From NCBI GenBank assembly GCA_036479435.1, contig JAZGFI010000017.1, positions 1 to 64,000 on the forward strand: a DNA stretch of 64,000 bases, read 5' to 3'. Every line of letters begins with the position of its first letter. The stretch's first letter is position 1. This DNA is from Planctomycetota bacterium (lineage in GTDB: Bacteria; Planctomycetota; GCA-002687715; DRQF01). Made by a program: the position numbers and the translations under genes. The notes under the pieces are model-generated. The model searched no databases and was not told the DNA's origin. It was given only the letters and a program-made list of their open reading frames with translations. This document shows, one piece after another, positions 42,201-62,884 of this stretch.

Positions 42201-42371
42201 CTCCAGGACTTGGAAGAGCGGATGGGGCGCATGGCGCACCTCACCCCGAAGTGGCGATTCCGAATCAAATCGGTTCAAGAATTCACTATGTTCCCCGCGT
42301 TTTTGGCCTTTAGAGTCCGAAGCTTCTTCGCATGTAGAAATTTTCCGCATTGAGCCTGCATGAACACCCAC
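39237..42371 (-). CDS. ECF sigma factor fused to TM and extracytoplasmic carboxypeptidase-regulatory-like repeats
   Basis: Sigma2 DDLAQDAWLAAL..PWL, sigma4 RTAVLLRFFEGLPPREIAKRLDLPVETARTQVKRGL, TM ALVLLLLGAGVWFAFF and repeated TDxDGxF/Y beta-sandwich units. The true start is probably about 45-65 codons downstream. Confidence 0.85.
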   Translation of the reverse strand: MGVHAGSMRKISTCEEASDSKGQKRGEHSEFLNRFDSESPLRGEVRHAPHPLFQVLETLLPRFDVDPQTVLEDDAFLRRLAERLVGDSSTGDDLAQDAWLAALRAEGTPKGPRRPWLAGTLRKLLANDRRQSRLRRLRESAAKPGPPGSAVDEFLMQQALRQRVVDVVVDLAEPYRTAVLLRFFEGLPPREIAKRLDLPVETARTQVKRGLDLLRSTLDREFGGRKNWNVAFAVAFLPTASTAGASLLQGAFVVSLKSKVALGSALVLLLLGAGVWFAFFDEDDASWNETNSSFSSSDGPNTEAARRNAAETAVEGAKAAAHNSEDLDSSTLSPLVAASPKFGRLEVDVIWELDGTPAANVPLRVLPFGAPDPFLHERWYESDNSGKFTLDRCYAGHGYLSCPFGGLVRIKVKGGETAKMQFKIPLGATIKGKVQGPEGRGIAGAEVYAGGMAGTFGGKPVTHSDASGNFHLKSISGESIFALGARAEGFEASPNVIIENSPGAKFELTLKLGPPASTLIVSVVDFEDQPVPDALVRVGNREFSQNRRPDGHLEMPSSRFAARSDSKGICRIYGAAAGKVAVHVRSPRFAPWAGEDEIPAQGLTHLKVHLPEPGQLEGRITLASGAPAPALLVQVGEYAAIDGHLTRTDKDGRYRIEGLAPGARKIEIKSDKFGDVHDTIEVIAGATTRFDTSLKPSGKNIEGIVVDSSSNAVANVSVSSQHFAKGRVQHYQDRTDANGKFTLQNLADGDYALQVLRGTTTLVQHRQMVKPGSAPIRIVVPSDRLLIGGIRGLIHDDQGRPVTTARIIANQIGGTNRGGAHHRSKGDAADFEIKDLIPGRYLLYIRSSVHGRRTFGPFEVSKDRIVDVGVLTLVAPAFLDISLRRGIGTADLRPKLWLTSPKNNGNLSVDLKDDPQRSQPLEPGPYHLRLRGTGVQDLSQDVIIIAGKVLSVSFDLETARPVQFSFLAAEGDAPEKVEIIVRNLVGEEIYRTLRKRWRDQDEVLVLKLQLKREVFVIEAKDPQGRSARVQVEADADDDVVMSLR

Positions 42372-46695: not shown

Positions 46696-46926
46696 TTCGT
46701 CTACGGTCATATGGGAGCTTCACGGCGGTACCGGTTGACCCTCTAGATTTGAAACTCTATGCTCCCTTCGTCTTGGACCTTGTGTGATCCAAAGCCCGGT
46801 TAGATTGTCAGTTGTCGCTTGGAACCGATTCGTCGGTTTCTGGTTACTCTGTGGTCCAATTCTGAATCTGAAATTAGACTTTGGCCGACATTTCGTGCGA
46901 AAGTTGAGTCTTCCGAGAGTGTGCCC

Positions 46927-49005
46927 ATGACTGCGCGTTTCGCTGCGTGTCCAACCCTTGTTTTGGCCCTTGCCCTCGTTTTGCCCTCGATCGCGTTTGC
47001 CCAACTGGGGACCCGTGAATCGACGGTCTTAGAGGGGGCGACAGTTTGGGTCGATGGCGCGATGGTTGAGAATGCCAAACTCCTGTTTAGCGGACGCCGC
47101 ATCCAAGGCGTCGGAGCCAAGATCAAGCTCCCGGATGGCGTCGACGTCATCGACCTCAAGGGTAAGTTCGTCCTGCCGTCGTTTATCGACAGTTCGGCAT
47201 TGATTGCTGGCATGCAGCCAGCTCGCTCGCGCAACCCCGAGCATCTGGTCATCGATAACGTCAACCTTTACCACCGCGATCCTTTCCAGGACGCGATCGA
47301 AGGGGGCGTTGGCTATCTCTACTTGAGCGGGGCTGCGAACTCCGGAGTTGGGGCGCGAGGGCTGGCATTGAAGATGCCCGGAATGAAGGTCGACAAAGTG
47401 GCCGACCTCGTTCTTAAGGGCAGCGAATCGATGCACGTTCGCTTGGGAACCAATTCCCGCGGGCCCATTGCGCGACTTGCCGAGATCAAGAGCTTCGAGA
47501 GCTACCTCAAGAACCTAAAGACCTACCGCGAAGGCTGGGAAAAGTACCGCGAGAAGCTCAAAAAGTACGAAGAGGAACTCGCCGAGTGGGCGAAGAAGAA
47601 CAAGCCGAAAAGCAAAAAGTCCGGCGGCGCGAAAAAGTCATCCGGCGCTAAGTCGAAGAGCAAGCCCAAGGCGTCACCGCGTCCGAAGTCGCCGAGTCCC
47701 GTCAAAAAACCGAAGCGTTCGCGAAGCGCCCTCGGGCTTGCAGGCTTGTCATGGCCCGGATTTGGTCTGGGGCACGACGACGATGATGATCACGAAGACC
47801 ATGAAGACCACGATGATGGCGTTGAGGTTTGCGATCTCGACGGCTGCACCATTCCCGGTCAGCACGAAATTCATCTGCACGACGATTGGGTCTTCGAATC
47901 GGAGCTCGACGGGCAAGATCACGACCATGAGCGTGATCATCTCCCAGAACAGGTTGATCCTGGTTTCGCCGCGATCTTCATCGATCCCCCGCGCCTGAAG
48001 CCCGAATTGAGCATCATTGGCGACGGCACCGAGACTCACCTTCGCCGCCCTTTGTTGGCCAGCGAGCGGCTTGCCAATCAGAAACGTTTTTCGACTTGTC
48101 CGCATTGTGGCGCCTCCGATCCCTTGGCACCGCAGCACATCGCCCACACCAATCCCTGGCCTGTCGACGAATTCGACCGGGTCGCGGCCGAATTGGAGCA
48201 GCGCTACTTTGAGTCCTACAGGCTCGACATGGCCCTGGCGGATCCGAAGCCCGGCGGGCCGAAGAAGCGCGGGTCCAAGTCTTCGAGCAAATCGAGCAAG
48301 TCAAAAAAGGGAGCTAAGCCAAAAAAGCCCAAGGAGCCCGGCTTCAAGCCAGCGCTGGAAGTTGCAAGCAAAGCGCTCGATGGCAAGCTCAAGGTCCGAA
48401 TCGAAGTGCACCGGGCTGAGGATATTCTGGCCGTCCTCGATGTTCTCGACCGCTATCCCCTCGACGCGGTCCTGGAGGGCGTTACCGAAGGTCACTACGT
48501 GGCTGAGGCGATTGCGAAAGCAGAATTGCCGGTCGTGCTAGACGCGGCACTCGCCACTCCGATTCAAGAACAGTCCCTCGGCGCGAATCGTCGTTTGGGT
48601 CGTCTTCCCTTCCCCGCATTGCCGGGCTCCAGTCGAACCCTCTCACCAAGCCGAACGCAAAGCGATCGCGGACCTGGAGGACTGGCACGCAGAGGCATTG
48701 CTCACCGTGAAAACGCCGCCAGGTTGGTCAGGGCCGGGGTCACGGTGGTGATCTCCAGTCTTGGAGCGGGTAGCGAGAGTCTACTCGCGCGAGCCGCCTC
48801 TGCCGCAAGCCGCGGTTTGTCCCGCGCGGAAGCACTGGATGCCATTACTCGCAATGCAGCCCTGGTGCTCGGCGTCGGCGATCAGATCGGCGAATTCAGC
48901 CCTGGTCGGCTGGCTAGCTTCACCGTCTTTGATGGTGACCCTTTTCTGGCGACTAGTCGCGTCGAAAAGGTCTACATCGACGGCAAGGAAATCTACGGTA
49001 AATAG
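46927..49005 (+). CDS. Secreted amidohydrolase-fold protein 1, HxH lost, with large Lys-rich and His/Cys-rich insert
   Basis: Signal peptide AFA|Q, IDLKGKFVLPSFIDSSA (HxH absent) and C-terminal ALDAITRNAALVLGV..IGEFSPGRLASFTVFDGDP. Confidence 0.8.
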   Translation: MTARFAACPTLVLALALVLPSIAFAQLGTRESTVLEGATVWVDGAMVENAKLLFSGRRIQGVGAKIKLPDGVDVIDLKGKFVLPSFIDSSALIAGMQPARSRNPEHLVIDNVNLYHRDPFQDAIEGGVGYLYLSGAANSGVGARGLALKMPGMKVDKVADLVLKGSESMHVRLGTNSRGPIARLAEIKSFESYLKNLKTYREGWEKYREKLKKYEEELAEWAKKNKPKSKKSGGAKKSSGAKSKSKPKASPRPKSPSPVKKPKRSRSALGLAGLSWPGFGLGHDDDDDHEDHEDHDDGVEVCDLDGCTIPGQHEIHLHDDWVFESELDGQDHDHERDHLPEQVDPGFAAIFIDPPRLKPELSIIGDGTETHLRRPLLASERLANQKRFSTCPHCGASDPLAPQHIAHTNPWPVDEFDRVAAELEQRYFESYRLDMALADPKPGGPKKRGSKSSSKSSKSKKGAKPKKPKEPGFKPALEVASKALDGKLKVRIEVHRAEDILAVLDVLDRYPLDAVLEGVTEGHYVAEAIAKAELPVVLDAALATPIQEQSLGANRRLGRLPFPALPGSSRTLSPSRTQSDRGPGGLARRGIAHRENAARLVRAGVTVVISSLGAGSESLLARAASAASRGLSRAEALDAITRNAALVLGVGDQIGEFSPGRLASFTVFDGDPFLATSRVEKVYIDGKEIYGK

Positions 49006-49006
49006 G

Positions 49007-50215
49007 ATGCCAATGATCTCGACTTCACTGTTGCCCCCTTTACGGGTCACCCGAATCGTCGTCGGCTGTGTTCTTGCGACCTTGGCTTGCGCCGTGTCGC
49101 TCTCAGCCCAAAGCCCGAGTCAAAAACCGCAGCAGTTTGCGGTGCGCGCGAAGCGCATCGTCACTGGTGCCGGTCCCGACATCATCGACGGCGTCATCTT
49201 GATTGAAAAGGGCAAGATCAAAGCCCTGGGCCAAAAGCTTGAGGTGCCCAAAGGCTGGAAAGTCATCGATCACCGCGATCGGGTGCTGATCCCTGGGATG
49301 ATCGATATGGCCTCCCGGGCGGGCGCACCAAAAGACTTGCGCGAATCCGCGGTCGCCGTCGACTCCAGAACTTGCGCGCTAGACGCGGTGGCATTGGATC
49401 ACCGCGATTTCGCGATGCTGTGCGAAGCGGGAATTACCGCGGTTGGCGTTTTGCCCGAGCGTCGCAACGCCTACAGCGGTCAAGGATGTGTGCTCAAGAC
49501 GGGATCGGCGTACCAAAAGCGAGTCGTTGAGGTGCACGGTCCGGTGATGATGACTCTTGATGCATCCGCCTACAGCCGGTTGCGAATGCCAGCGTCCTAC
49601 ATCGGGCTCATCAAGCTGCATCGCCTTATCCTGGAGACCGCGAAGGGCGGCCGCGCCGGTCCGTCCTTGGTGGGCCTAGCGAGAGGTAAACGCAAGGGCG
49701 TTTTGTACGCGCGCACCGAGCAGGCACTCAAGGACAGTCTTAAACTCAAGCGCAGATTTGATCTCGACATCACCTTGATGGCTGCCAATGCGATCCGCCG
49801 CGTGGTGGATGAGTTTGCCAACTCCGGAATGCGTGTGGCCCTACTGACGCCGACTTTTCGGAGCGGCAAGCGCAGGTTGACTTTGCCCGCGCTACTCGAG
49901 AAGAAGGGGATTCAGGTCGTCTTCTACGCGGACACTCCGAATCTTGCGCCCGCAGGCCTAAGGCTGGGGGCCGCGCTCGCGGCGCAGAACGGCCTGGGGC
50001 GTCGTGCGGCGCTTGCCTCGATCACCTCCGGGCCGGCGGAAGCGCTCGGCGTCGCCGCTCGCATCGGCAGTCTGGCTGTCGGCAAAGATGCGGACTTCGT
50101 CGTACTGAGCGCCGACCCCTTCGATTTTTCTGCCGCGGTCATCGAGACCTGGGTGGACGGTCGTCGTGAATACCGCAAGAAACCTAACGCGAAGAAGAAG
50201 GAGCTCGCGCCATGA
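49007..50215 (+). CDS. Secreted amidohydrolase-fold protein 2, HxH lost
   Basis: Signal peptide LSA|Q, PGMIDMASR and IGSLAVGKDADFVV. Start moved to ATG 49007. Confidence 0.85.
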   Translation: MPMISTSLLPPLRVTRIVVGCVLATLACAVSLSAQSPSQKPQQFAVRAKRIVTGAGPDIIDGVILIEKGKIKALGQKLEVPKGWKVIDHRDRVLIPGMIDMASRAGAPKDLRESAVAVDSRTCALDAVALDHRDFAMLCEAGITAVGVLPERRNAYSGQGCVLKTGSAYQKRVVEVHGPVMMTLDASAYSRLRMPASYIGLIKLHRLILETAKGGRAGPSLVGLARGKRKGVLYARTEQALKDSLKLKRRFDLDITLMAANAIRRVVDEFANSGMRVALLTPTFRSGKRRLTLPALLEKKGIQVVFYADTPNLAPAGLRLGAALAAQNGLGRRAALASITSGPAEALGVAARIGSLAVGKDADFVVLSADPFDFSAAVIETWVDGRREYRKKPNAKKKELAP

Positions 50216-51483
50216 GGCTCGGCCAACTCGCCGCTATGATGACCACTCTTGTTTTGTGGTCGGCTCTTTCCAGTCTCCTCGGCGCCCAGCAGACCCTGGC
50301 GATCAGCGCCGAAAAAATCTACGTCGGGGACGGGACGATCATCGAGAAGGGCGTCATCATTGTCAGTGGCGGCAAGATCCTTGCGATCGGGCCGGGATCT
50401 CAGATTGAGATCCCACGCGGCACGCGACGCCTTCGGGTTCGAGGCAGCGTGACACCAGGTTTCATTGATGCCGCCGCCGATGCTCTGCTGGGGGCGTCAA
50501 AAGACGAACAATCGTCAGAAGTAACGCCTGAAGGACGCGCCATTGACGGCTTGGATTTCGGTTCGTTGTTGATGAAGCGGCTGGCTCGTGAAGGCGTGAC
50601 CACGGTCTACGCGACCGCCGGAAATTCCGCGGTCATCACGGCGCAAGGTGCCACAGTTAAGACCGGGACGGGCGACGTTCAGAACCGTATCCTGACTCGT
50701 GATGGGGCGCCGAAGCTGGTACTCATATCGGGGCCGGAAAGGGGCAACGCTCGACCCCGAAACCCCGCTGGCATTAGCGATTTCACTCGCCTCCCCTTGG
50801 GGCGAATGGGCGGCATTTTCGTGGCACGAAGCGCTCTCGGTCAGGCAAAAGATCGGCTTCGGATCGCGAAGGCTGGCGGCAAAGTCGCCAAGAACGCGGC
50901 CTTTGATGTGCTCGGCGAAGTCTTGTCCGGCAAGCGACGCATGCGGGTTTTGGCGCGACGTCAAAACGAAGTCTCGACGGCTTCGAGGCTCGCTAAAGAG
51001 TTCGGGTTTTCCTACGTCATCGAGCAGGGCAACGAAGCCTACAAGAACATCCGGGAGCTAAAGCGCGACCACGCGGCGGTCATTTACGGTCCCATGAGAT
51101 CTTCGAGCCCCTCGATGGCCGGAGTCTCGCGACAATTACGACGCTTTTTCACTGATCCCAACTTGAACAAGATACTCTCGACCCCCCGCGTCCTCATCGA
51201 TGCGAAGATCCCTACCGCGTTGACCGCGGGAGGGAATACGGGAGAGTACGGCCTCGCGCGGCAAGCGATGCTTGCGATGCGTTGCGGTCTTTCGCGCGCC
51301 GAGGCTTTAGCGGCGGTGACCACGGTCCCAGCCCAGTTGCTCGGGGTCCAGGACCGAGTGGGAACTTTAAAAGTGGGGCGCGACGCCGACCTGATCGTGT
51401 GGTCTGGCGAGCCTCTTGATGCCACCAGTATTCAAAGCCACGTCTTTATTGGCGGGCGTCGTGTTGCGGGGAAAGTCTTTTGA
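50212..51483 (+). CDS. Secreted amidohydrolase-fold protein 3, HxH lost
   Basis: Signal peptide LGA|Q, PGFIDAAAD and VGTLKVGRDADLIVWSGEP. Confidence 0.85.
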   Translation: MRLGQLAAMMTTLVLWSALSSLLGAQQTLAISAEKIYVGDGTIIEKGVIIVSGGKILAIGPGSQIEIPRGTRRLRVRGSVTPGFIDAAADALLGASKDEQSSEVTPEGRAIDGLDFGSLLMKRLAREGVTTVYATAGNSAVITAQGATVKTGTGDVQNRILTRDGAPKLVLISGPERGNARPRNPAGISDFTRLPLGRMGGIFVARSALGQAKDRLRIAKAGGKVAKNAAFDVLGEVLSGKRRMRVLARRQNEVSTASRLAKEFGFSYVIEQGNEAYKNIRELKRDHAAVIYGPMRSSSPSMAGVSRQLRRFFTDPNLNKILSTPRVLIDAKIPTALTAGGNTGEYGLARQAMLAMRCGLSRAEALAAVTTVPAQLLGVQDRVGTLKVGRDADLIVWSGEPLDATSIQSHVFIGGRRVAGKVF

Positions 51484-51533
51484 ATTTCCGCAACTCACCA
51501 TTAGCACAAGCGAACCCATCCACGGGAGTTTCG

Positions 51534-53024
51534 ATGATGATCCGGCTTTTCGCGACCACGGCGGTGTTGGTCTTAGCAGTTTGCACCACAACGTGGGCTC
51601 AGTTCACGGATAAGGTCCTCATTGAAGGGGCCAAGATCATTCCTGTCGTCGGCGATGTCATCGAGAAGGGCAACATCCTGATCGAAAACGGCAAGATCGT
51701 CGCCGTCGGAGTTGACGTTAAGGCGCCTTTTGATGCCAAGGTCATCGACGCTAGCGGGAAGACCGTCTTTCCGGGCATGATCGATCCCTATACATCTAGC
51801 GGCCTCGACATTCCCAACGAAAGCGTGCCGGTGGCGTCATTCGTCCGCGTTGCGGACGCGATCGACCCTTCGGCTCGCTACTTCGAGAATGCCCTGCGCG
51901 GTGGTTTGACCTCAATCCACATCGCACAGGGCGCGAATGCGGTCATTAGCGGCGTGACGCGCGTCGTGCGGCCCATCGGTATGATGGTCAGCGAGATTAC
52001 CGTTGAAGCCGAAGGCGGACTCGGCATTGTTTTCTCGGCGGCGGGAGGGCGCGACGTCGCGGGCCAGCTCGCGACCTTGCGCGGCACTTTTCGCAGTTTT
52101 GACCGCTACCTGAAACGTTTGGCGGAAAAACTCTACGAAGAGGAACAGAAAAAAGACGGCGGCGAAGTTCGAGTCGGGCCGAAAGAAGCGCGCAAACTCG
52201 GCGCGAAGTTGATCAAGCCGAGCAAGATCGAGGATCGCTACCGTAACCTCTGGCGCATTCGGCATGGTGAGCTCGATGTCTATGCCCATTGCTCGCGAGC
52301 CATGGATGTTCAGACGGCTTTGGATTTCGCCAAGGCTCAGGGATTTGCGGATAACATGACGATCGTGCTCGGTTCGGAAACTTTCAAGGCTGTGCGTCGC
52401 CTGAAGAAGCTCTCTCGTCCGGTCATCTTATCCAAGAGTCAGTTCGTTCACCGTGAAGCCGATCGAATGACACAGGAGCCGATCGACACCTTCGTTCCCG
52501 ATGTGCTGATGAAAAACGGAATTGAGTTCGCGATCGCCGGTAGTGAAGAACCCTGGTACGAAGCGGCCCGATTGGTCCGCAACGGGATTCCTCGCCAAAA
52601 AGCTCTTGAGGCGATCACTCTCAATGCCGCGAAAGCCATCGGCCTGGGAGCACGCTTGGGCTCGATAGAGCCGGGCAAGGACGGAAACATCCTGATTCTC
52701 AGCGGCGACCCTCTCGACACGATGACTTGGGTCGAACACGTTTTCATCGAAGGGCGCCACGTTTACGACAACAAAAAGGACCTTCGATTGCGCCACCTTT
52801 TGCAAGGAGCCTTTGACACGAAGTTGGCCGCAGACAAGAAATCGGCGGCGGCGCTCGAGGCCAAAAATGCCAGGGCTGACAAGGAAGCCAAGGCAAAGAC
52901 CGACGAAAAATCTAAGGCAAGCAAAGGCGACAAGCCCGCTAAGAGTGACGAGAAGTCCAAGGCCGATTCGAAACCGTCTGACGCCAAGAAGTCACCGGCT
53001 CCTGCCGGTGGCTCGAAGAACTAG
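51534..53024 (+). CDS. Secreted amidohydrolase-fold protein 4, HxH lost, Lys/Asp/Ala-rich tail
   Basis: Signal peptide TWA|Q, PGMIDPYTS and LGSIEPGKDGNILILSGDP. Start moved to ATG 51534 (GGGAG). Confidence 0.85.
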   Translation: MMIRLFATTAVLVLAVCTTTWAQFTDKVLIEGAKIIPVVGDVIEKGNILIENGKIVAVGVDVKAPFDAKVIDASGKTVFPGMIDPYTSSGLDIPNESVPVASFVRVADAIDPSARYFENALRGGLTSIHIAQGANAVISGVTRVVRPIGMMVSEITVEAEGGLGIVFSAAGGRDVAGQLATLRGTFRSFDRYLKRLAEKLYEEEQKKDGGEVRVGPKEARKLGAKLIKPSKIEDRYRNLWRIRHGELDVYAHCSRAMDVQTALDFAKAQGFADNMTIVLGSETFKAVRRLKKLSRPVILSKSQFVHREADRMTQEPIDTFVPDVLMKNGIEFAIAGSEEPWYEAARLVRNGIPRQKALEAITLNAAKAIGLGARLGSIEPGKDGNILILSGDPLDTMTWVEHVFIEGRHVYDNKKDLRLRHLLQGAFDTKLAADKKSAAALEAKNARADKEAKAKTDEKSKASKGDKPAKSDEKSKADSKPSDAKKSPAPAGGSKN

Positions 53025-53036
53025 GAGCGCCCTGCG

Positions 53037-55859
53037 ATGTTAAAGGCAAGCTCCTGGATGATGGTGCTGTGTGCCATCGCGCTTCTCTGGCCGGTCGAGT
53101 TCGGAAGCGCAGCGCAAGCTGGCGACGATGAAACGGGCCGCCCGGCGCAAGACTACGCCGTGCGTGCGCGTCGGATTTACGTCTTGGACAAAGTTGACTA
53201 CCTCGAAGACGCTTGGATGATCATTCGCGGTGGCAAGATCGATTCTTTAGGCACCGGCGCGATTCCTGACGCTGATTTGCCGGTGGTTGATTTTCGGGGG
53301 GCGAGTTTGCTCCCGGGATTGGTTTCGACGGAAAGCCGGATTTTCGTCGGTGCCGATGCCACGGGGATGGGTGCCCGTTATGTCGCGGCCGACAAGTTCA
53401 ATCCCTACGCAAATTTTCAGGCGAGTTGGCGACACGGCGTCACCACGGCTCGCCTCACTTCGCCCGGCCGACGTTTTGTCTCCGGTATCGGTTCCGTCGT
53501 GCGATTCGGCGCGAATGCCGAGGATTCAACGGTTCTGGTTCGCCAGGCTGATTTGACGGTGAACTTCAATGACGAAGCGGGGCGCGGCGAGAGCCCTGAT
53601 GCCGAACTCGTAACGCCGAGTTCGATGGACGTTCCTTACCGGCCCGCCGAACGTCGTCGCCCCGAGACACGCCTCGGCCGCATCTTGGCACTCGAGACGC
53701 TCCTGCGTGATGTACGGGTGGCGAAAAACCAAGACGAACCCAGCTTGAAGTTGTTGGCCTTGGGAGAATTCCTCGAGTCGGGACGCCCGTTTCGATTCGA
53801 TGCCGAGCGCCGTGGCGATATTTTGCAGGCGCTCGAGGCAGCCAAAAGAAACGGTTTGCCGATCTATCTCGCCGGTGCCACCGAAGCTCATGCTTTGGTG
53901 GACGAGATCGCCGCCGCAAAAATCTCGGTTGTTGTCGACTTTGACAATGCGCTTCCCGATCCGAGCTTCAATGGTTTTGACCCGGTAACGCCCATCATTG
54001 AGGACGACCGTACCGCCGCCGTTTTGGAGAACCGCGGGGTGCGCGTCATCATTGGCGGCCACAGTGACGACTTGCTCATGAGTGCGGCGCTCGCCGTCAA
54101 AGGCGGCATGACCGAAGGGGCCGCTCTGCGGGCCGTCACCGCACGTCCCGCGGACTTGTTGGGAGTTGGAGACCGCGTTGGTCGCCTCAAAGCGGGCATG
54201 GACGCCGATTTTGTGGTCATCAATGGTGACCCCTTGGGCACAAGTTCACGCGTTCAGCAGGCCTGGGTACTCGGTTCGCAGGCTTGGAGTTTGGCGGCCG
54301 TCGACAAGATGCCCGAGGCCGTGGTGGTTCGGGCCGGGAAGATCTATGACGGCAAGGGTGGCGTTTATTTGGACGCCGAAGTGTTGATTGAAGACGGCAA
54401 GGTTGTGGCTGTCGGACATCGAGTGCAGCGACCGGCCTACGCTCGCATGCACGACGCTGGCCCCGAGGCCGTGATCACTCCGGGATTCATTGATATCCAC
54501 AGCACCCTTGGACTTGAAGGCGACAGCAGTACGGTCAAATCAGACCAAAATCTGAGCAAGTTGTTTTCAAGGGCTCGCCCAGAGTTTGCGGCCGTCGCGC
54601 GCGCCGGGATCACGACCGCCGTCGTCGCACCGGGGAAGGGATCGTCCAGCGGCTCACCGATCATCGCCATCAAGACCCAGGGAAAAAACCGCAAGGAGCT
54701 GATTTCGAAAGCTGCCGCCGGAGTGAAGCTTACCGTGAGAGGAAGCGGCGCCAGCGTGTTGAAGAGTCTGGAGTCGACACTGAACTCAGCTGACAACTAC
54801 CACAAAAAGTGGCTCAAGTACGAAGCAGAGTTGGCCGCTTTCGAAGCCGCGAAGAAGAACGGCAAGCTGCCGAAGGCCGCAGCTCCCAAAGGCAAAACTC
54901 CTCCCAAAGTCAGCCCCAAGCCCAGCGCAGAGGCCAGCGACGCTTTGAGCGGCACCTGGGAAGCGACTCTCAGCGGAGGGCCCATGGGCGAGCCGATGAA
55001 GCTCACGATGCGCCTCGCCTTAGAAGGGACTGACTTTACTGGCACGGTTACCGACCCCTTCGGTGGCAGCCAGGACGCGCCCATTACGGGTACCTTTGAT
55101 GGGACGACGTTCGAAGCAAAAGTCGAGCCCGAAGATGCGCCCTTCGAAAACGTTCGCGTCACCGCGAAAATGACGGAGCCTGAAGTGCTGAAAGGTAGCG
55201 TTGATGTCGATGGCATTTTCGAGATCGATCTCAGCGCAAAACGGACCTCCAAGGGCAAACCCAAGATCACCGTAAAGCGAGCGGTCACGGCTGTCGCTAG
55301 CGGACCAAAAGGCCCGAAGAAACCGAAGTACAGCGCGCGATTCGAGCCCTTTCGCAAAGTCCTCAGTGGCAAAGCGGGGATCATGGTCGCGGCAACCGGA
55401 GCCGAAGCTGTCGGTGCCGTGGTGCAGGCCTTTGGCAAACGTAAGTTGCCGGTCGTGATCCTCGGCGGGGCAGGGGCACACGAAGTGCTGGATAAGATCG
55501 ATGGTAACTCGGTTGGCATCGCGATCTGGCGCCAGTACACCCGCCAGGATAAGGCCCGCAATATCTTAATCCCCGACGAACTCGATCGCGCTGGCGTTTC
55601 GCCCTTGTTCCAGAGCAACGGCTCTTGGGGAGCGTCTCGATTGCCGCGTTTCGTTCGCGCGGCGGTGCGGGAGGGACTCAATCCTGAAACGGCGTTGCGG
55701 TCTTTGACCTACGACGCGGCCCGTTTGATGCGCATGGACGATTCGGTCGGTTCTCTCAGTCGAGGATGCGATGGTGACTTGTTGATATTCGACGGCGAGC
55801 CTTTTGACGCTCGTACCAGCTTGGTCGAAGTCTTGATTCGTGGAAAGGAAGTCCAATGA
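53037..55859 (+). CDS. Secreted tandem double amidohydrolase-fold protein 5, degenerate, with inserted beta domain
   Basis: Domain A has PGLVSTESR...GRLKAGMDAD. Domain B has PGFIDIHST...GSLSRGCDGD with the insert DALSGTWEATLSGG. Confidence 0.85.
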   Translation: MLKASSWMMVLCAIALLWPVEFGSAAQAGDDETGRPAQDYAVRARRIYVLDKVDYLEDAWMIIRGGKIDSLGTGAIPDADLPVVDFRGASLLPGLVSTESRIFVGADATGMGARYVAADKFNPYANFQASWRHGVTTARLTSPGRRFVSGIGSVVRFGANAEDSTVLVRQADLTVNFNDEAGRGESPDAELVTPSSMDVPYRPAERRRPETRLGRILALETLLRDVRVAKNQDEPSLKLLALGEFLESGRPFRFDAERRGDILQALEAAKRNGLPIYLAGATEAHALVDEIAAAKISVVVDFDNALPDPSFNGFDPVTPIIEDDRTAAVLENRGVRVIIGGHSDDLLMSAALAVKGGMTEGAALRAVTARPADLLGVGDRVGRLKAGMDADFVVINGDPLGTSSRVQQAWVLGSQAWSLAAVDKMPEAVVVRAGKIYDGKGGVYLDAEVLIEDGKVVAVGHRVQRPAYARMHDAGPEAVITPGFIDIHSTLGLEGDSSTVKSDQNLSKLFSRARPEFAAVARAGITTAVVAPGKGSSSGSPIIAIKTQGKNRKELISKAAAGVKLTVRGSGASVLKSLESTLNSADNYHKKWLKYEAELAAFEAAKKNGKLPKAAAPKGKTPPKVSPKPSAEASDALSGTWEATLSGGPMGEPMKLTMRLALEGTDFTGTVTDPFGGSQDAPITGTFDGTTFEAKVEPEDAPFENVRVTAKMTEPEVLKGSVDVDGIFEIDLSAKRTSKGKPKITVKRAVTAVASGPKGPKKPKYSARFEPFRKVLSGKAGIMVAATGAEAVGAVVQAFGKRKLPVVILGGAGAHEVLDKIDGNSVGIAIWRQYTRQDKARNILIPDELDRAGVSPLFQSNGSWGASRLPRFVRAAVREGLNPETALRSLTYDAARLMRMDDSVGSLSRGCDGDLLIFDGEPFDARTSLVEVLIRGKEVQ

Positions 55860-57112
55860 TCGCACGCCCGATTGGATCACCCCTCATCGCTCTTGTCGCG
55901 GCCCTAGTCTTTGTGCTCGCGTTTGCGTCGCCAGGTATGGCGCAGGAGAAGCTGGCGCTAATGGCCGGCAAAGTCCTGACGATGGACGAAAAGGACACGG
56001 TCTTAAACAACGTCATCGTCTTTTTGAAGGACAGAAAGATCGAGAAGATCATCCCTCAGCGTGGAGCCGTGATCCCCGCTGACTACCGGGTTATCGATCA
56101 CCGCGACAAGTGGCTCGTTCCGGGTCTTATCGATCCGCACAATCACACCTCGTCGGAGGAATTCGGCAGTCTCGTCGGTGAGTTCGGGTCGCTCACAAAT
56201 CCGGGCCTTCGCGCCTTGGATCTCGCCATGCCCCGAACTGAGAGCAACATTCGCTCTTTGGCCGGTGGTGTCACTACGGTGCTGTTGATTCCGGGTTCGG
56301 CGACGAACCTGGGTGGTTTTGGCGTCGTTGCACGTGTCGGCTGTTCCGAGATGGACGACTTTATCTTGAAGGAAATCGGATCGGTGAAGATCGCTCAGGC
56401 TGGCAACCCGGAGCGCTTTTACTTCCGCAAAGGTCGTAGTTACATGAACTACAACCTGCGCCAAACCTTGCAGAAGGCCAAAGACTATCACGAGGCTTGG
56501 AATCGTTTCGAAAGCAAAAAGTCGAAAACACAGCCCAAGTTCGACGCGCACTGGGAGTCTTTTCGAGGGCTCTTTCGACGGACTTTTCCGGCCAGCGTTC
56601 ACACTCAGATCTATCAGGTGGTGCACGCCTCTATCGCGATGCTGTCGGACGAGTTCGGCATCAAACTCATGATTGACCACGGCACTTTTGATGGCTACAA
56701 GCTCGGCAAGCAAGTTGCAGAGCGAGGTATTCACGCGATGATCGGGCCGCGCATGTGGTGGATGGACCCCGTGGATCGCACGATCAACGGAACGGCCGCC
56801 GGCTATTGGAAAAACGGTGTCAAGAAGATCGGATTGAACACCGACGCCGGAGTGTTGCCCCAAGAAGACCTTCCGATGCAAGGCGCGATGTCCGTGCGCT
56901 ACGGTTTCGACACCTACGCGGCGTTGAAGGGCATGACCTATTGGGCCGCAGATTCTCTGGGATTAGCCAATCGCATTGGCTCCCTGCAGCCCGGCTTTGA
57001 CGCGGACATCGTCGTGTGGTCGGGCAACCCTATCGATTTTCGTTCCAGCGTCGACAAGGTCTACGTTTTGGGAAGCGAAGTATACAACGCAGACGAACGG
57101 CGGATCTATTGA
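55856..57112 (+). CDS. Secreted amidohydrolase 6 with complete binuclear metal site
   Basis: Signal peptide GMA|Q, PGLIDPHNH, VKIAQAGNP (Lys), SVHTQ, IDHGT and NTDAG. Confidence 0.9.
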   Translation: MIARPIGSPLIALVAALVFVLAFASPGMAQEKLALMAGKVLTMDEKDTVLNNVIVFLKDRKIEKIIPQRGAVIPADYRVIDHRDKWLVPGLIDPHNHTSSEEFGSLVGEFGSLTNPGLRALDLAMPRTESNIRSLAGGVTTVLLIPGSATNLGGFGVVARVGCSEMDDFILKEIGSVKIAQAGNPERFYFRKGRSYMNYNLRQTLQKAKDYHEAWNRFESKKSKTQPKFDAHWESFRGLFRRTFPASVHTQIYQVVHASIAMLSDEFGIKLMIDHGTFDGYKLGKQVAERGIHAMIGPRMWWMDPVDRTINGTAAGYWKNGVKKIGLNTDAGVLPQEDLPMQGAMSVRYGFDTYAALKGMTYWAADSLGLANRIGSLQPGFDADIVVWSGNPIDFRSSVDKVYVLGSEVYNADERRIY

Positions 57113-57157
57113 GATGCCGTGGTACTGTGATCTGCAAACAATCACGCGGAGTATGTC

Positions 57158-58669
57158 GTGAGTAGATTGATTGTTGGGATGGTGGCCTTGGTCTTTGTGA
57201 TCGGCACCGCCTTTGAGTCTGGGGCTAGCAACCTTATGCAAGGACGGGCGGAGGTTGCGCACAGCATTCCGCTGGCCTTCGATGCCAATGCTGAGAGTGG
57301 CCGCACTGTCTTTGATGACGACATGGTCGTCGTCAAGGCTGGCAAAGTCATTACGCTCGCGGGTGAAGCCCTAAAAGACGTCACGATCGTCATCCGCAAC
57401 GGCAAGATCGAGGCCATTGGCGAGAACGTGGACTATCCCTTTGGGACCAAAGTCATCGACGCCACGGATCTCACGGTCATGCCGGGGATGATCAATCCCT
57501 TGTCGCGCCTGATTCGCAACGGATCAGGCGGGGGTGTGACGCCGAATCGTACCCAAGCTTCCAGCTTCCGGGGCAAGCCTGAGGATCTAGAGTCGATCGC
57601 CTACGCGGGCTACACCACGCTTGGAATCGTACCGCCTGGTTCGGGGATTCCCGGCCGCGTGATGGTGCTGAAGACGGGTGGTACGAGCCGCGAAGACCTT
57701 ATCGTTCAAAACGAGGGAGCGGTACTCGTCACTTTCAACAGCCCCGGCAACGACAAGAGCCGTATCCTGCGTGCCTTCAAGTCGGCGCAAGGTGAGCTCG
57801 ACAAGATCGAGAAGGCTCGCAAGGCTTTTGACGCGAAGAAGAAAAAGGGGTCGAAGAAGAAGCCGACCCCAAAACCGAGCCCTAGGCCAACACCAAAGCC
57901 GAAACCCAAGCCAACACCGAAGCCGACGCCGAAGCCCAAACCTGGTCCCACTCCAAAGCCCAAACCAGGCCCGAAGCCTAAGCCCAAAGGCGGTGCCTCG
58001 AGCGGGACTTTTAAGGCCCCCAAGATCAACCCCTTATACGCGCCCTTGGTGGACCTCATTCAAAAGAAAGAGGGTGCCACGGCCATCGTCGAGTTTGGAA
58101 TGAGTCCCTATATGGTCTGGGCACCGTCGACGTCAGCGAGTAGTTCGTTCCTCCATTGGGAGGAGATACCCAAGACCTATGATTTTCGACATGCCTATCG
58201 GATCCGGAACAGCGTGGTGAAGCGCAACAGCGCCTTCAACGTTCGCCCGGAATCGGACCTGCACTTGGTAGCCGAAAAACTCGGCAAGGAAAAAGCTCTC
58301 ATCGCGATCTTCCCGGTGACGAATCACTTTCCCTACACCAAGGACAAGTTCAACCTCGGCCTGTTGCTGCATAGCAAGGGCTGTCGGGTGGTCTTCTTGC
58401 CTGAGATGGAAACTTGGAGTTCGTATGCGGCGATGCGTGAGAACATCGCACGTATGGTTCGGAATGGATTTCCGCGCGACGAAATCTTGAAGACTGTAAC
58501 TTTGCACGCGGCAGAGATGTTGGGTCTCGAAAAGCGCCTCGGTTCGATCGAAGTCGGCAAGGACGCCAACTTGCTGTTCTTGACGGGTGACCCCCTCGAT
58601 TTCAACTCGACGGTCGCGAAGGTCATGGTCGAAGGCAAGATCGTAAAAACGAAAGCGCGCTTGCGCTAG
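57158..58669 (+). CDS. Secreted amidohydrolase-fold protein 7, HxH lost, Pro-Lys/Thr repeat insert
   Basis: Signal peptide, PGMINPLSR, KPTPKPSPRPTPKPKP... and LGSIEVGKDANLLFLTGDP. Confidence 0.85.
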   Translation: MSRLIVGMVALVFVIGTAFESGASNLMQGRAEVAHSIPLAFDANAESGRTVFDDDMVVVKAGKVITLAGEALKDVTIVIRNGKIEAIGENVDYPFGTKVIDATDLTVMPGMINPLSRLIRNGSGGGVTPNRTQASSFRGKPEDLESIAYAGYTTLGIVPPGSGIPGRVMVLKTGGTSREDLIVQNEGAVLVTFNSPGNDKSRILRAFKSAQGELDKIEKARKAFDAKKKKGSKKKPTPKPSPRPTPKPKPKPTPKPTPKPKPGPTPKPKPGPKPKPKGGASSGTFKAPKINPLYAPLVDLIQKKEGATAIVEFGMSPYMVWAPSTSASSSFLHWEEIPKTYDFRHAYRIRNSVVKRNSAFNVRPESDLHLVAEKLGKEKALIAIFPVTNHFPYTKDKFNLGLLLHSKGCRVVFLPEMETWSSYAAMRENIARMVRNGFPRDEILKTVTLHAAEMLGLEKRLGSIEVGKDANLLFLTGDPLDFNSTVAKVMVEGKIVKTKARLR

Positions 58670-58705
58670 GCGTTGGCCTCGATGGCTAGACGCAAACAGG
58701 AGCTA

Positions 58706-60292
58706 ATGGTGAAAACCCCTTACGTGATGCGACTCGCAGTCTTTTGGTGTGCGACTTTTTTGATCGCCGGTGCCCTTGTCGCCCAAGCTGGCGGAAGCAA
58801 GCCGACGAAATCGGCCAACGCTCCGGCGAAAGGCGAAGAGAAAAAGGACGACGACGACAAGAAGAAAGATCGCTGGTTGCACATTCACAACGTGGATGTG
58901 TATCCCGTGGCCGGACCGATTCGGCGCCGCGCGGAGATTCTCGTCAAGAACGAGAAAATCGAAGCGATCGGCCGCAATCTTGATGTTCCAGAAGACGCCG
59001 AAAAATTAGACGGCATGGGATTTCGCGCCTATCCCGGCCTGGTCGCCCTCAATGGATCGGGCATCGTTCCGCGCGCGAGCGGCAAGATCGAAGACACTTC
59101 GCATCCGAGCGGTCTTTGGAACATCCTCGCGTTGGCCCATGGCATCACCACGGTGATCACGGGGACGACGGCGGTGAAAGTCCAGATGGACTCCATCGAA
59201 AACTACGTCCTGCGTAAAAGCCTCTACCTTGCCATGGCGTATTCCGCCCGCAATCCGCGCGCGAAAGTGCAGCTGCGATCTGACCTCCGCAAGGCTTTCA
59301 ACTTTCTTCGTCAAAAGCGTAGCGGCGAAAAGAAAAGTGCCAAAACTACGAAGTCGAGTGCAAAGGGTGGAGCTAAGTCCGCGAGCTCGAAGAAGCCCAA
59401 AAAAGCAGCGTCGGCTCAAAAACAGCTGGGGGGCGCGGCTCGCTACCTTCCCCTGTTGGAAGGCAAGACCACCGCGGTCTTCAACGTCTCCTCAACTCAG
59501 GAGATCCGCGACGTTTGCGACTTGGTGCGAACTTTTGGTTTCCGAACTGTCATTCGCGGAGCGGTACACGGGTGGACCGTGCCTGGCGACATGGGACGAG
59601 CGGGCGTGATGGCCATTGTTAGTCCTCGCGACCGTGATGACCCGGATGATGGACTCAACCGACCCACGGGTTCGACGGTGGCCAACGCCGCGATCTTGCA
59701 CCAGCACGGTGTCCGCGTTGCCATTTCTTCGATCGGCAATACCGTTGACCTGGACGGTAGTCCTGGACGCGATGCTGTTTCACTTGCCTTTGACGCGGGT
59801 GCCGCTGTCGGCGGAGGGTTGCCCAATGATGAGGCGATTCGCGCCATCACCCACACCGCTGCGCAGTGCTATCAACTTGACGATCGTGTTGGTTCGCTCG
59901 AAGTCGGCAAGGACGCCGATATTATCATTGTCGACGGCGAGCTTTTGCATTACGCCACCCATGTGCAATGGGCGATCGTAAACGGCAAGCTTTGCTACGA
60001 CAAAGAGAAAGAATCGCTGTTGAGGTCGATCCGATCGCGCAACCCGAAGAAGGAAAAAGACAACGCGCCCTGGTGGCCGCGCCCCTTCGCGGAAATGCCA
60101 GACTCATGGACTTACGATCCCGCCAAGGTCGCCGCTGAACGCGAAGCCGCGAAGAAGAAGGAAGACGGCGAGAAAAAGGGTGACGAGAAAAAAGAGCCCG
60201 AAGACAAAAAGCCCGCCGACGCCAAGGACAAGGGCGACGACGACAAGGCAACGAAGGAAAAAGCCAAAGGCGACAAGCCCGTCAAGGGCTAG
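58706..60292 (+). CDS. Secreted amidohydrolase-fold protein 8, HxH lost, Lys-rich insert and charged tail
   Basis: Signal peptide LVA|Q, PGLVALNGS and VGSLEVGKDADIIIVDG. The start is uncertain (58673-58727). Confidence 0.85.
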   Translation: MVKTPYVMRLAVFWCATFLIAGALVAQAGGSKPTKSANAPAKGEEKKDDDDKKKDRWLHIHNVDVYPVAGPIRRRAEILVKNEKIEAIGRNLDVPEDAEKLDGMGFRAYPGLVALNGSGIVPRASGKIEDTSHPSGLWNILALAHGITTVITGTTAVKVQMDSIENYVLRKSLYLAMAYSARNPRAKVQLRSDLRKAFNFLRQKRSGEKKSAKTTKSSAKGGAKSASSKKPKKAASAQKQLGGAARYLPLLEGKTTAVFNVSSTQEIRDVCDLVRTFGFRTVIRGAVHGWTVPGDMGRAGVMAIVSPRDRDDPDDGLNRPTGSTVANAAILHQHGVRVAISSIGNTVDLDGSPGRDAVSLAFDAGAAVGGGLPNDEAIRAITHTAAQCYQLDDRVGSLEVGKDADIIIVDGELLHYATHVQWAIVNGKLCYDKEKESLLRSIRSRNPKKEKDNAPWWPRPFAEMPDSWTYDPAKVAAEREAAKKKEDGEKKGDEKKEPEDKKPADAKDKGDDDKATKEKAKGDKPVKG

Positions 60293-60307: not shown

Positions 60308-60904
60308 ATGACCGGGAACGTTCCCTTTGTACACGCCACCGCCCTGGTTGAAGAGGGCGCACACCTCGGGGCTGGCTGCAAAATCTGGCACCAAGTTCAC
60401 ATCATGGCGGGGGCTTGGATAGGACCCAGGGTCGTGATTGGCAAGAACGGGTTCGTCGCTTCGACAGTGGTAGTCGGCGAGAGTTGCCGCATTCAGAACA
60501 ACGTGTCGCTTTACGATGGCGTGACTTTGGGCGCTGGGGTCTTTGTGGGACCGTCCGCGGTTTTTACCAACGTCAAGCGTCCGCGGGCCCGATTTCCGCG
60601 CCGGGACACCTACGCTGAGACGCGTGTTGACGACGATGCCACCATCGGAGCCAACGCGACGATTCTGTGCGGCACTCACATCGCCGAAGCTGCGATGATC
60701 GCGGCGGGAGCCGTGGTGACCTGTGATGTACCGGCCTTTTGCCTGGTCGGTGGAGCGCCCGCTCGGCGCATGGGCTGGGTTTGTCGCTGCGGAGAAGCGC
60801 TTGTGGTCCGGGACGATGATTCTGATCATGAGGTCAGTTGTGACGAATGCGGGCGCGACTATTCGTTTTCGCATCGCCATTCATTGATGTCGGAATTGAA
60901 GTAA
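60308..60904 (+). CDS. Hexapeptide-repeat N-acetyltransferase (WbpD-like) with C-terminal Cys4 ribbon
   Basis: FVHATALVE, CRIQNNVSLYDGV, FVGPSAVFTN, IGANATILCG and WVCRCG...CDECG. Confidence 0.85.
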   Translation: MTGNVPFVHATALVEEGAHLGAGCKIWHQVHIMAGAWIGPRVVIGKNGFVASTVVVGESCRIQNNVSLYDGVTLGAGVFVGPSAVFTNVKRPRARFPRRDTYAETRVDDDATIGANATILCGTHIAEAAMIAAGAVVTCDVPAFCLVGGAPARRMGWVCRCGEALVVRDDDSDHEVSCDECGRDYSFSHRHSLMSELK

Positions 60905-60919
60905 ACCGATCACTGTTTT

Positions 60920-62059
60920 TTGATCCCGGAGCCGAGCTTGGATGCCATCCCTTTTATCGACCTGAAAGCACAGTACGCCGGGACCAAAGATCAGGTTCGC
61001 GCCGTGGTTGATGCCGTTTTCGAAGATCAGGCTTTCATTCTCGGTGAGACCGTCTCCAGATTTGAAGAAGACTATGCGGCTTGGCTGGGTTTGCCGAAAG
61101 GGAGCGCGGTGGGAGTGTCCTCCGGGACCGACGCGCTGCTTGTTACGCTCATGGCGCTCGGGGTCGGACCGGGTGACAAGGTCCTAACCACGCCCTTCAG
61201 TTTCTTTGCGACGGCGGGGGTCATCGCGAGGCTGCACGCAACGCCGGTGTTTGTCGATATCGATCCGATCACGTTTAATCTCGACCCTGCCGCCCTGAAA
61301 GGGCTCGATCCCGAAGATTTTAAAGCCCTCATTGTCGTGCATCTCTACGGTCGCTGTGCTGACATGCGGTCGATCCGAGACTGGGCGGATGCGTCGGGCT
61401 TGCCGCTAGTAGAAGACGCGGCACAGGCTGTCGGTGCCAAAGATGAGGGAGGTGCGCCGGTTGGTGGCTTGGGGCGTGCCGCCTGTTTCTCTTTTTTCCC
61501 CACCAAAAATCTTGGTGCTGCAGGTGACGGCGGCTGTGTCACTTCTCTAGATCCTGAGTTCACATCGAAAATCCGTGCCTTGCGCACGCACGGTGCGGTC
61601 CGCCCCTACGACAGCGACATCATTGGCGGCAACTTCCGTTTGGATGCTCTTCAGGCCGCCGTACTCGGCGCGAAGCTTCCGTTTTTAGACGACTGGAATC
61701 GGCGACGGCTCGAGAACGCCGCCGCCTACAACCAGTATTTCCGCGATCGCGGTCTTGAGGGGCGGATGGGCCTGCCGGAGCTTCCGCTTGACGACAGCTA
61801 CGTGGCACATCAATACGTGCTGAGATTGCCGAACCGAGATGAGGTTGCCGCAAAGTTGGCGGAGCAGGGCATCGGATGTGCGATTTATTATCCCAAGCCG
61901 CTACACCTCATGGATTGCTTTTCGCGGCTGGGGTACGCAGAGGGCTCTCTCCCCGAGGCTGAGCGGGCGTCTCGGGAGGTCTTGGCGCTGCCCATTTTTC
62001 CCGAGCTTGGGCAAAAACGCCACCGGCGGGTCGCGGAGGCGGTCGCCGCCCTAGTTTGA
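60920..62059 (+). CDS. DegT/DnrJ/EryC1/StrS sugar aminotransferase (WbpE-like)
   Basis: IPFIDLKAQY, SSGTDAL, VEDAAQA, SFFPTKNLGAAGDGG and LALPIFPEL. Confidence 0.92.
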   Translation: MIPEPSLDAIPFIDLKAQYAGTKDQVRAVVDAVFEDQAFILGETVSRFEEDYAAWLGLPKGSAVGVSSGTDALLVTLMALGVGPGDKVLTTPFSFFATAGVIARLHATPVFVDIDPITFNLDPAALKGLDPEDFKALIVVHLYGRCADMRSIRDWADASGLPLVEDAAQAVGAKDEGGAPVGGLGRAACFSFFPTKNLGAAGDGGCVTSLDPEFTSKIRALRTHGAVRPYDSDIIGGNFRLDALQAAVLGAKLPFLDDWNRRRLENAAAYNQYFRDRGLEGRMGLPELPLDDSYVAHQYVLRLPNRDEVAAKLAEQGIGCAIYYPKPLHLMDCFSRLGYAEGSLPEAERASREVLALPIFPELGQKRHRRVAEAVAALV

Positions 62060-62254
62060 GGAATGAGCCCGTTTCATGGGCCCGCTCAAGAACAATGACC
62101 TCGTTAAACCGCACGGCGCCGTCTTTGCCCCTCGCTCCATCGCGAGATCCTCGGCGCAAGAAGCGAAAATGGGGGAGCAATTGTCGCGAACAACCGTTGT
62201 GTAGGATAGAGGTTGGGATTCGCTCGACCTCGTGGCAGGGATGGCGGTCCTAAG

Positions 62255-62884
62255 ATGACGCTGAAGCGAGACTTCGGGTCCGAGACAGAACTTGCTGCGA
62301 CCCGGGGCGAGAGTTCTGACGAGGTTCTGATGGTGCGGGTCGCCGAGGGCGATGTTGAGGCCTATGAGGCGCTCTATCACCGCTATCGCAACCGGATCCT
62401 GACCTTCGTGTTTCGATACGTCGGAGATCGTGATATCGCAGAGGATCTCGCCCAAGAGGTCTTTTTGAAGCTTTATCGCTCACCGAGGTCCTTTGATCCG
62501 CGCAATCGCTTCATGACTTGGCTGTTCACGGTGGCGCGCAACCTCGCCATTGACCATTTGCGAAAGAAAAAGCCCGCTACGGCTTTGACGCAAGAGGGAG
62601 AGGACGGCGAGTTCTCGCTGGAGCCACCGGAACCCTTGAATCAGGGACCCGTCGACAAAACACTGCTGAAGGAAATGGAGGAGAACCTCCAGTCGATTCT
62701 GATGACCTTAAGCGACAAACTTCGCGAGGTGTTTGTGCTCTGCGCCATGCAAGGATTGGCTTACGAAGAGGTGGCTCAGATTGTTGGTTGTCCGGCCAAA
62801 ACGGTGAGTTCTCGTCTCGCGAGGGCGCGCCGGCGCTTCGTTGAAGAGCTGGACCCCTACCTCAGCGGAAAGAAAAGCCCCTGA
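62255..62884 (+). CDS. ECF RNA polymerase sigma factor
   Basis: DEVLM..V..GD.EAYEALY, AEDLAQEVF, FMTWLFTVARN..IDHLR and GLAYEEVAQIVGCPAKTVSSRLARAR. Confidence 0.93.
   Translation: MTLKRDFGSETELAATRGESSDEVLMVRVAEGDVEAYEALYHRYRNRILTFVFRYVGDRDIAEDLAQEVFLKLYRSPRSFDPRNRFMTWLFTVARNLAIDHLRKKKPATALTQEGEDGEFSLEPPEPLNQGPVDKTLLKEMEENLQSILMTLSDKLREVFVLCAMQGLAYEEVAQIVGCPAKTVSSRLARARRRFVEELDPYLSGKKSP

Follow-up and report, generated by a model that had tools for sequence, protein, structure and literature searches.

Positions 46927-60292 of a 64,000-nucleotide stretch from a Planctomycetota bacterium (GenBank assembly GCA_036479435.1, contig JAZGFI010000017.1; hereafter the window) hold a tight array of eight open reading frames (ORFs), all on the plus strand, free of internal stops and, given the starts chosen here, spaced by -4 to +57 nt. 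An initial annotation had described eight co-directional genes for nine amidohydrolase domains, and both the ORFs and the Pfam profiles bear this out: Amidohydro_1/3 scores above cut-off in all eight genes and matches the fifth twice, which gives nine domains (g1 to g4, g5a, g5b and g6 to g8; Table 1). A hydropathy heuristic (not SignalP) finds an uncharged hydrophobic N-terminal stretch on every one of the eight products, from which we infer that they are exported. A public contig covers the full stretch with one letter differing, and is possibly the window's own source; the nearest named relatives, at 61-67% identity, belong to Planctomycetota. We describe here the evidence that this array is conserved and that it probably encodes an exported hetero-oligomer of one enzyme class and its catalytically dead relatives.

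Table 1. Features of the amidohydrolase array and its upstream region, in window coordinates.
Feature	Position	Strand	Length (aa)	String at PGxI/V	Remarks
sigma-70-like consensus match	46735..46763	+			upstream of g1; not above chance
g1	46927..49005	+	692	DSSAL	degenerate domain; signal-like N-terminus
g1 insert	~47750-48350	+			long, K/P-rich, His/Asp-rich, with CxxC
g2	49007..50215	+	402	DMASR	degenerate in the window
g3	50212..51483	+	423	DAAAD	degenerate; start overlaps g2 stop (ATGA)
g4	51534..53024	+	~496	DPYTS	degenerate; alternative TTG start at 51480
g5	53037..55859	+	940	STESR (g5a), DIHST (g5b)	two fused degenerate domains
g5b insert	~54950-55260	+	~100		all-beta domain
g6	55856..57112	+	418	DPHNH	full binuclear-metal set; subtype A (VHTQ)
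g7	57158..58669	+	503	NPLSR	degenerate; Lys/Pro-rich insert
g8	58727..60292	+	~521	ALNGS	degenerate; ORF open from 58673; charged low-complexity tails

Binuclear amidohydrolases hold two metals with six residues, and these metals activate water for amide hydrolysis. In the window the complete set is found in g6, whose H95, H97, K178, H249, H275 and D330 align with identical residues of 3OOQ, an amidohydrolase structure from Thermotoga maritima that is by far its best sequence match (E 4.6e-50; next 6.6e-13) and that also shares the PGSxN and KxAxxxNP loops. The subfamily of the array is presumably the one labelled cd01309 in CDD. The remaining eight window domains retain 0-1 of the six residues at columns mapped to g6 by profile-profile alignment of each class, where the fourth-His and Asp columns have low posteriors (0.2-0.7) in several classes and the fourth His is unmappable in g5b. 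Loss of the HxH pair is read directly from the sequence, independent of this weak column mapping, and the nine strings in Table 1 are identical to those first noted at the PGxIDxHxH site. All eight other classes nonetheless belong to the superfamily, whose fold is a TIM barrel with an N/C-terminal beta-sandwich, matching g6 profile to profile with probability 100. The array genes fall short of every NCBIfam equivalog cut-off (the best score of g6 is 76 bits against a cut-off of 500), including the curated cut-offs for named COG1228 enzymes such as HutI, Xaa-Pro dipeptidase, PhnM and others. Because existing annotation of the array proteins reads only 'amidohydrolase family protein' or 'imidazolonepropionase-like', the dead copies are currently counted as enzymes.

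The genome searches covered Planctomycetota and Bacteroidota. Among 401 sampled Planctomycetota genomes, that of the window included, 109 contained g6-type matches at E 1e-64 or better, and up to 20 kb was fetched around 60 of these matches, picked from 26 families for spread and long contigs; with the window and one further locus (L005) this gave a set of 62 loci. The order g1-g2-g3-g4-g5a~g5b-g6-g7-g8 was found in 62/62, with all nine classes present in 58. Two of the four incomplete loci are contig ends, and in the other two the missing parts persist elsewhere: G217 has its array split over two places with every class present, and G037 carries g8 alone on a different contig. The same order recurred in 15 further array loci and in 80/80 metagenome loci (33 of them complete; near-identical loci were retained, making this set partly redundant). 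Each position is also a distinct orthologous class, since in cross-validation, with profiles built from one half of the 42 nine-domain loci and applied to the other, 378/378 positions were assigned correctly. A search of the same 401 genomes with the inactive class g4 (E 1e-50 or better) gave 102 matches, of which 99 were shared with g6, corresponding to 99 of the 112 genomes having either gene; of the 13 discordant genomes 8 hold both genes on inspection and 5 are broken at contig ends. The proposed conservation of gene order and of orthology position by position across the phylum is thus upheld.

Selection on the inactive classes is likewise purifying. In six congeneric pairs the ratio of nonsynonymous to synonymous substitution rates (dN/dS, Nei-Gojobori) was 0.05-0.33 for the inactive classes and 0.04-0.22 for g6, with several dS values near saturation, and g6 is the most conserved class of the array. 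That the copies are not decaying, as the initial annotation held, is therefore well founded. The tandem layout is all that favours reading the array as a young tandem expansion now decaying, or as an artefact of assembly; orthologous positions over 26 families, dN/dS far below 1, metagenome loci of the same order and a public contig that spans the stretch (possibly the same source) all speak against it, and we regard this explanation as refuted by the conserved order, purifying selection and metagenome loci, and leave it next to no credence. Across the loci a signal-like hydrophobic stretch (by the same heuristic) precedes 338/384 first domains as compared with 1/68 internal fused domains.

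The division between g6 and the other classes extends to all sampled loci. After fragments shorter than 280 aa (330 aa in the metagenome set) had been dropped, the six-residue set was complete in 86/86 g6-class domains, in 29/29 from the further loci (one gene of which repeats the first set, with L125 excluded) and in 93/93 from metagenomes. Of the 968 other domains (483 + 89 + 396), six ligands were present in 1, five in 1 and four in 4. The two highest of these are both g2, with 6/6 ligands in L096 (4909-5946) and 5/6 in L098 (14066-15172), so the statement that only g6 is complete holds for the window and does not hold everywhere outside it. HxH is also kept in the g2 of L130 and L165. Since g2 retains HxH in a few lineages, with as many as six ligands, it may once have been a second catalytic position. 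The most conserved inactive class is g4, which retains the first His in 48/61 and the Lys in 49/61, both missing in the window copy.

These residues bear on the idea that some degenerate domains are active enzymes of a different chemistry, with a single metal, with no metal or with a site completed in trans, and that the array forms a multi-enzyme pathway. The g2 genes with 5-6 ligands in two lineages, the g4 His and Lys kept in about 80%, a g5b domain that reaches four ligands and the poor alignment of two ligand columns would fit such a pathway, whereas the window's own g2 and g4 have lost even these residues and g6 is the sole class whose barrel site holds an invariant set of His, Cys, Asp or Glu. 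In fact, the search for an alternative complete metal site turned up no substitute invariant ligand set of His, Cys, Asp or Glu at the barrel site of any inactive class, and we consider the pathway quite improbable. Most inactive classes show little conservation at what used to be the active-site columns. The inactive classes have invariant polar or charged residues of their own, differing by class and lying outside the metal site, most abundantly in g3, g4 and g8; we infer that these residues are interface contacts. As for the active class, the pocket loop of the window's g6 lacks two Asp residues found in 57/61 and 54/61 relatives, and its specificity may differ from theirs for this reason.

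Within arrays g6 is the only class that is duplicated. The 62 loci comprise 46 with a single g6, 11 with two copies, 2 with three and 3 with four, and the complete metagenome loci comprise 27 single and 6 double. The inactive classes are single-copy inside arrays; two metagenome loci carry an extra short g8-like fragment. In the g6 tree a subtype B (HTA motif, support 99.9) stands beside subtype A (HTQ), and the two subtypes are old: both occur in families f6, f8, f45 and f74, B occurs alone in f28, f40 and f71, and A is alone in the window's family. In f59 and in one f71 genome a single subtype has been re-duplicated to two copies. In family f8, L121 and L122 are additional single g6 genes that lie outside the array and have all six ligands. 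One bin (G090) holds two complete arrays (L068 and L120). In the tree the second array's g6 falls among those of a different family (support 100), which suggests whole-array transfer or bin contamination.

Physical linkage between neighbouring classes was found as gene fusions: g5a~g5b wherever both were seen, g1~g2 in six loci, g1~g2~g3 in two and g7~g8 in one. An apparent g5-g6 fusion in L125 proved to be a frameshift at an N gap of the assembly. An AlphaFold2 (AF2) model of g5, computed from 61 sequences, had a mean local confidence (pLDDT) of 89 and, across 905 residues, a predicted template modelling score (pTM) of 0.71; it also showed the inserted beta domain. Foldseek placed 3OOQ at the top of its matches (E 1.4e-24), making it the best fold match for the dead g5 domains, and 3OOQ is thus nearest both by sequence and by fold. 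A pTM of this size for a pair of ~400-residue domains suggests that g5a and g5b hold a defined mutual orientation. An AF2 model of an inactive~active fusion from a sister operon (described below) reached a pTM of 0.78, although the linker joining its domains was modelled with low confidence. Together the fusions and the single-chain models support contact between paralogues.

An alternative form of co-assembly is an open filament, cage or envelope scaffold, mainly structural, with g6 activity as an accessory and with the K/P/E-rich inserts and the g5b beta domain serving to anchor or space it. An ordered polymer would suit a fixed gene order equally, and K/P/E-rich windows are present in g1 (30/58), g5b (24/61) and g7 (43/61), compared with 0/86 in g6. 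Against this stand the conservation of g6, the highest of any class, its invariably intact metal set and the closed dihedral form of its closest solved structure, as far as one figure legend describes it, and we judge the structural scaffold to be improbable. Sequence length allows for the beta insert in 48/61 g5b; this insert has no Pfam match, and its atlas leads all scored <0.9. The CxxC of the g1 insert was found in 6/6 loci of the window's family and in none of the other g1 examined, and with its His and Asp residues the insert is possibly a lineage-specific metal site.

Simpler operons of the same kind were examined in Bacteroidota and other Planctomycetota as 13 active+inactive pairs and 21 inactive-active-inactive triples. 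One such pair lies in the same genome as the window (contig C10:393-2971, L113; active DSHSH and inactive DGRSV) and is of a type that also occurs in Bacteroidota. Active and dead domains are joined in one chain in 13/14 triples checked and in two pairs (L103 and L111), and the fused triple domains are also separated by a beta domain of similar size to that of g5b. The active domain of a triple resembles 3OOQ with Z 45.7 and a root-mean-square deviation of 2.0 over 367 aligned residues, the next structure having Z 25.0. These operons resemble the array in their fold and in their mix of complete and dead domains, but they have two or three classes rather than nine and are not orthologues of array positions. 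In 61 Bacteroidota genomes there was no match at the level of g6 (best E 1e-76, where the same profile gives <=1e-149 for array g6). Two stand-alone HxH genes of the subfamily (L169 and L170) have no dead neighbour within the fetched stretch, and it is possible that these encode homo-oligomeric forms.

Because only one of nine order-conserved, probably exported copies should still be able to bind catalytic metals, we consider a large mixed complex of mostly inactive subunits probable. Gene order, fusions and single-chain models lead us to favor the array as one operon for an exported enzyme/pseudoenzyme hetero-oligomer. Under this model a homo-oligomeric 3OOQ-like amidohydrolase would have had each of its subunit positions turned into a separate gene, and the nine domains would leave via Sec export and then assemble into one particle. 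There g6 would bind two metal ions through H, H, a carboxylated K, H, H and D and hydrolyze an amide bond, most likely that of a short peptide or an N-acyl amino acid, while the eight dead domains would fix the ring and some of them might gate it or bind substrate. A peptide or N-acyl amide substrate is a weak guess by analogy, made because carboxypeptidases and prolidases come next among the relatives of solved structure.

The initial annotation had foreseen a single catalytic subunit. One catalytic class stands, but the single subunit calls for revision: two catalytic slots fit better because only g6 duplicates, many lineages keep two subtypes and the nearest structure is ten-chained. The structure 3OOQ contains ten chains under a PDB title without function, and a figure legend calls it dihedral (10.64898/2026.08.06.736029). 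Chain count and legend together suggest D5 symmetry. We tentatively picture the particle of the array as a pseudo-D5 decamer of about 0.5 MDa with eight scaffold domains and two g6 slots, the latter filled by two copies of one g6 in the window's organism or, in genomes with both genes, by g6A and g6B. The window's precursors add up to 473 kDa, to which a second g6 would contribute 46 kDa. Slightly more doubtful still is the fuller proposal of an extracytoplasmic decamer of eight single-copy dead scaffolds in which nearly all positions have a gene to themselves and extra g6 paralogues would swap into two exchangeable slots to change specificity, in the manner of proteasome catalytic subunits.

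Several observations weigh against the particle that we favor. No fusion in the 62 + 15 + 80 array loci contains g6; pTM gives no view of the interface and was obtained with no control run alongside, and the model with the pTM of 0.78 comes from a sister triple, not from the array. The D5 symmetry of 3OOQ is drawn from a chain count plus that single legend, and some Bacteroidota genomes showed a triple alone, whose three types cannot be shared out evenly over ten chains. Trees did not resolve the deep branching of the classes and gave no 5+5 split; nor did they support an origin of the array by fivefold repetition of an ancestral active/inactive pair. Among the flanking genes, which are kept only within related families, none is conserved broadly enough to point to a substrate, and three to four g6 copies and the lone g6 genes of L121 and L122 equally fit ordinary enzyme diversification.

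The absence of g6 from fusions and the existence of lone g6 copies are also what one would expect if the genes were merely co-regulated and their products stayed separate or formed several small complexes, the dead domains serving in the periplasm as sensors or ligand binders while g6 works as an enzyme on its own; the g4 His and Lys, with an invariant NE motif, could then line a pocket. Independent binders would be expected to vary in number, whereas the eight classes stay single-copy and ordered, and the inactive classes are retained even after the operon has split. Furthermore, no conserved transporter or receptor gene was found beside the array among the flanking genes compared, and a binding role sits poorly with the weak conservation of former active-site columns in most classes. 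Separate products are in our estimation unlikely, though they deserve to be taken seriously, and the hetero-oligomer remains our preferred explanation.

Other features of the region are as follows. Scans for promoters and terminators returned no more than chance would give (for promoters, 4 sigma-70-like matches in the region against 3.3 +/- 1.6 in shuffles). Positions 39237-42371 on the minus strand encode a 1044-aa chain that combines an extracytoplasmic function (ECF)-type sigma factor, a hydrophobic segment and repeated carboxypeptidase-regulatory-like domains. After the array (60308-62884) lie genes for a hexapeptide-repeat acyltransferase, a DegT aminotransferase and an ECF sigma factor, the last two of which are kept downstream of the array within the window's family.

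To our knowledge, fixed-order complexes of many mostly dead paralogues are known mainly from eukaryotes, and the array is a candidate for such a complex encoded in one 13-kb bacterial operon. The simpler two- and three-class operons of Bacteroidota make the family one in which diversification of subunit positions and the indispensability of dead subunits can be tested, and if the decamer is real then the surviving lone, paired, triple and nine-class forms are a series leading from homo-oligomer to fixed-order hetero-oligomer. The array also points to a putative, unassigned hydrolase activity of exported type in planctomycetes. Within the literature open to our search there was no account of the array, the pairs or the triples. 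We conclude that the array is a genuine and conserved system that seems so far to be undescribed. Inactive chains of the amidohydrolase fold are as such already known from hetero-oligomers.

Several known systems resemble the array in part. The nearest, 3OOQ, has one sequence in all chains, unlike the nine exported-type domains of the array, eight of them without a metal site. The next structure matches are the COG1228 carboxypeptidases and prolidases (Cc2672/3MTW, 3BE7, 3FEQ and 2QS8) and the amidohydrolases of the 8IHQ series. COG1228 enzymes have the same binuclear amidohydrolase site and their mechanism acts on peptide or amide substrates, but their similarity to the array is weak and partial and they are single-sequence enzymes. 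There are also two cases of inactive amidohydrolase-fold chains working in hetero-oligomers. The CRMPs have the fold without the parent activity and prefer heterotetramers (PMC4051505), and in Pseudomonas the pseudo-dihydroorotase pDHO is an inactive chain required for ATCase activity (PMC7053772). The CRMPs differ from the array in being cytosolic animal proteins whose tetramer lacks an active paralogue, pDHO differs in scaffolding an unrelated enzyme, and neither case involves nine exported paralogues encoded in fixed order by one operon. A preprint on secreted metalloBSH (PMC13081902) deals with full-length enzymes of a different kind that occur in tandem; 3OOQ is not mentioned in its main text.

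The broadest parallel is with machines in which the positions of a homo-oligomer have diversified into fixed paralogues, many of them dead, namely the 20S proteasome, whose catalytic subunits are exchangeable, CCT/TRiC and the plastid and cyanobacterial ClpP/ClpR. Their folds are unrelated to that of the array, whose assembly is a prediction, and the analogy is one of organization only. What they have in common is stable orthologues at each position, maintained under selection, and these we find in the array.

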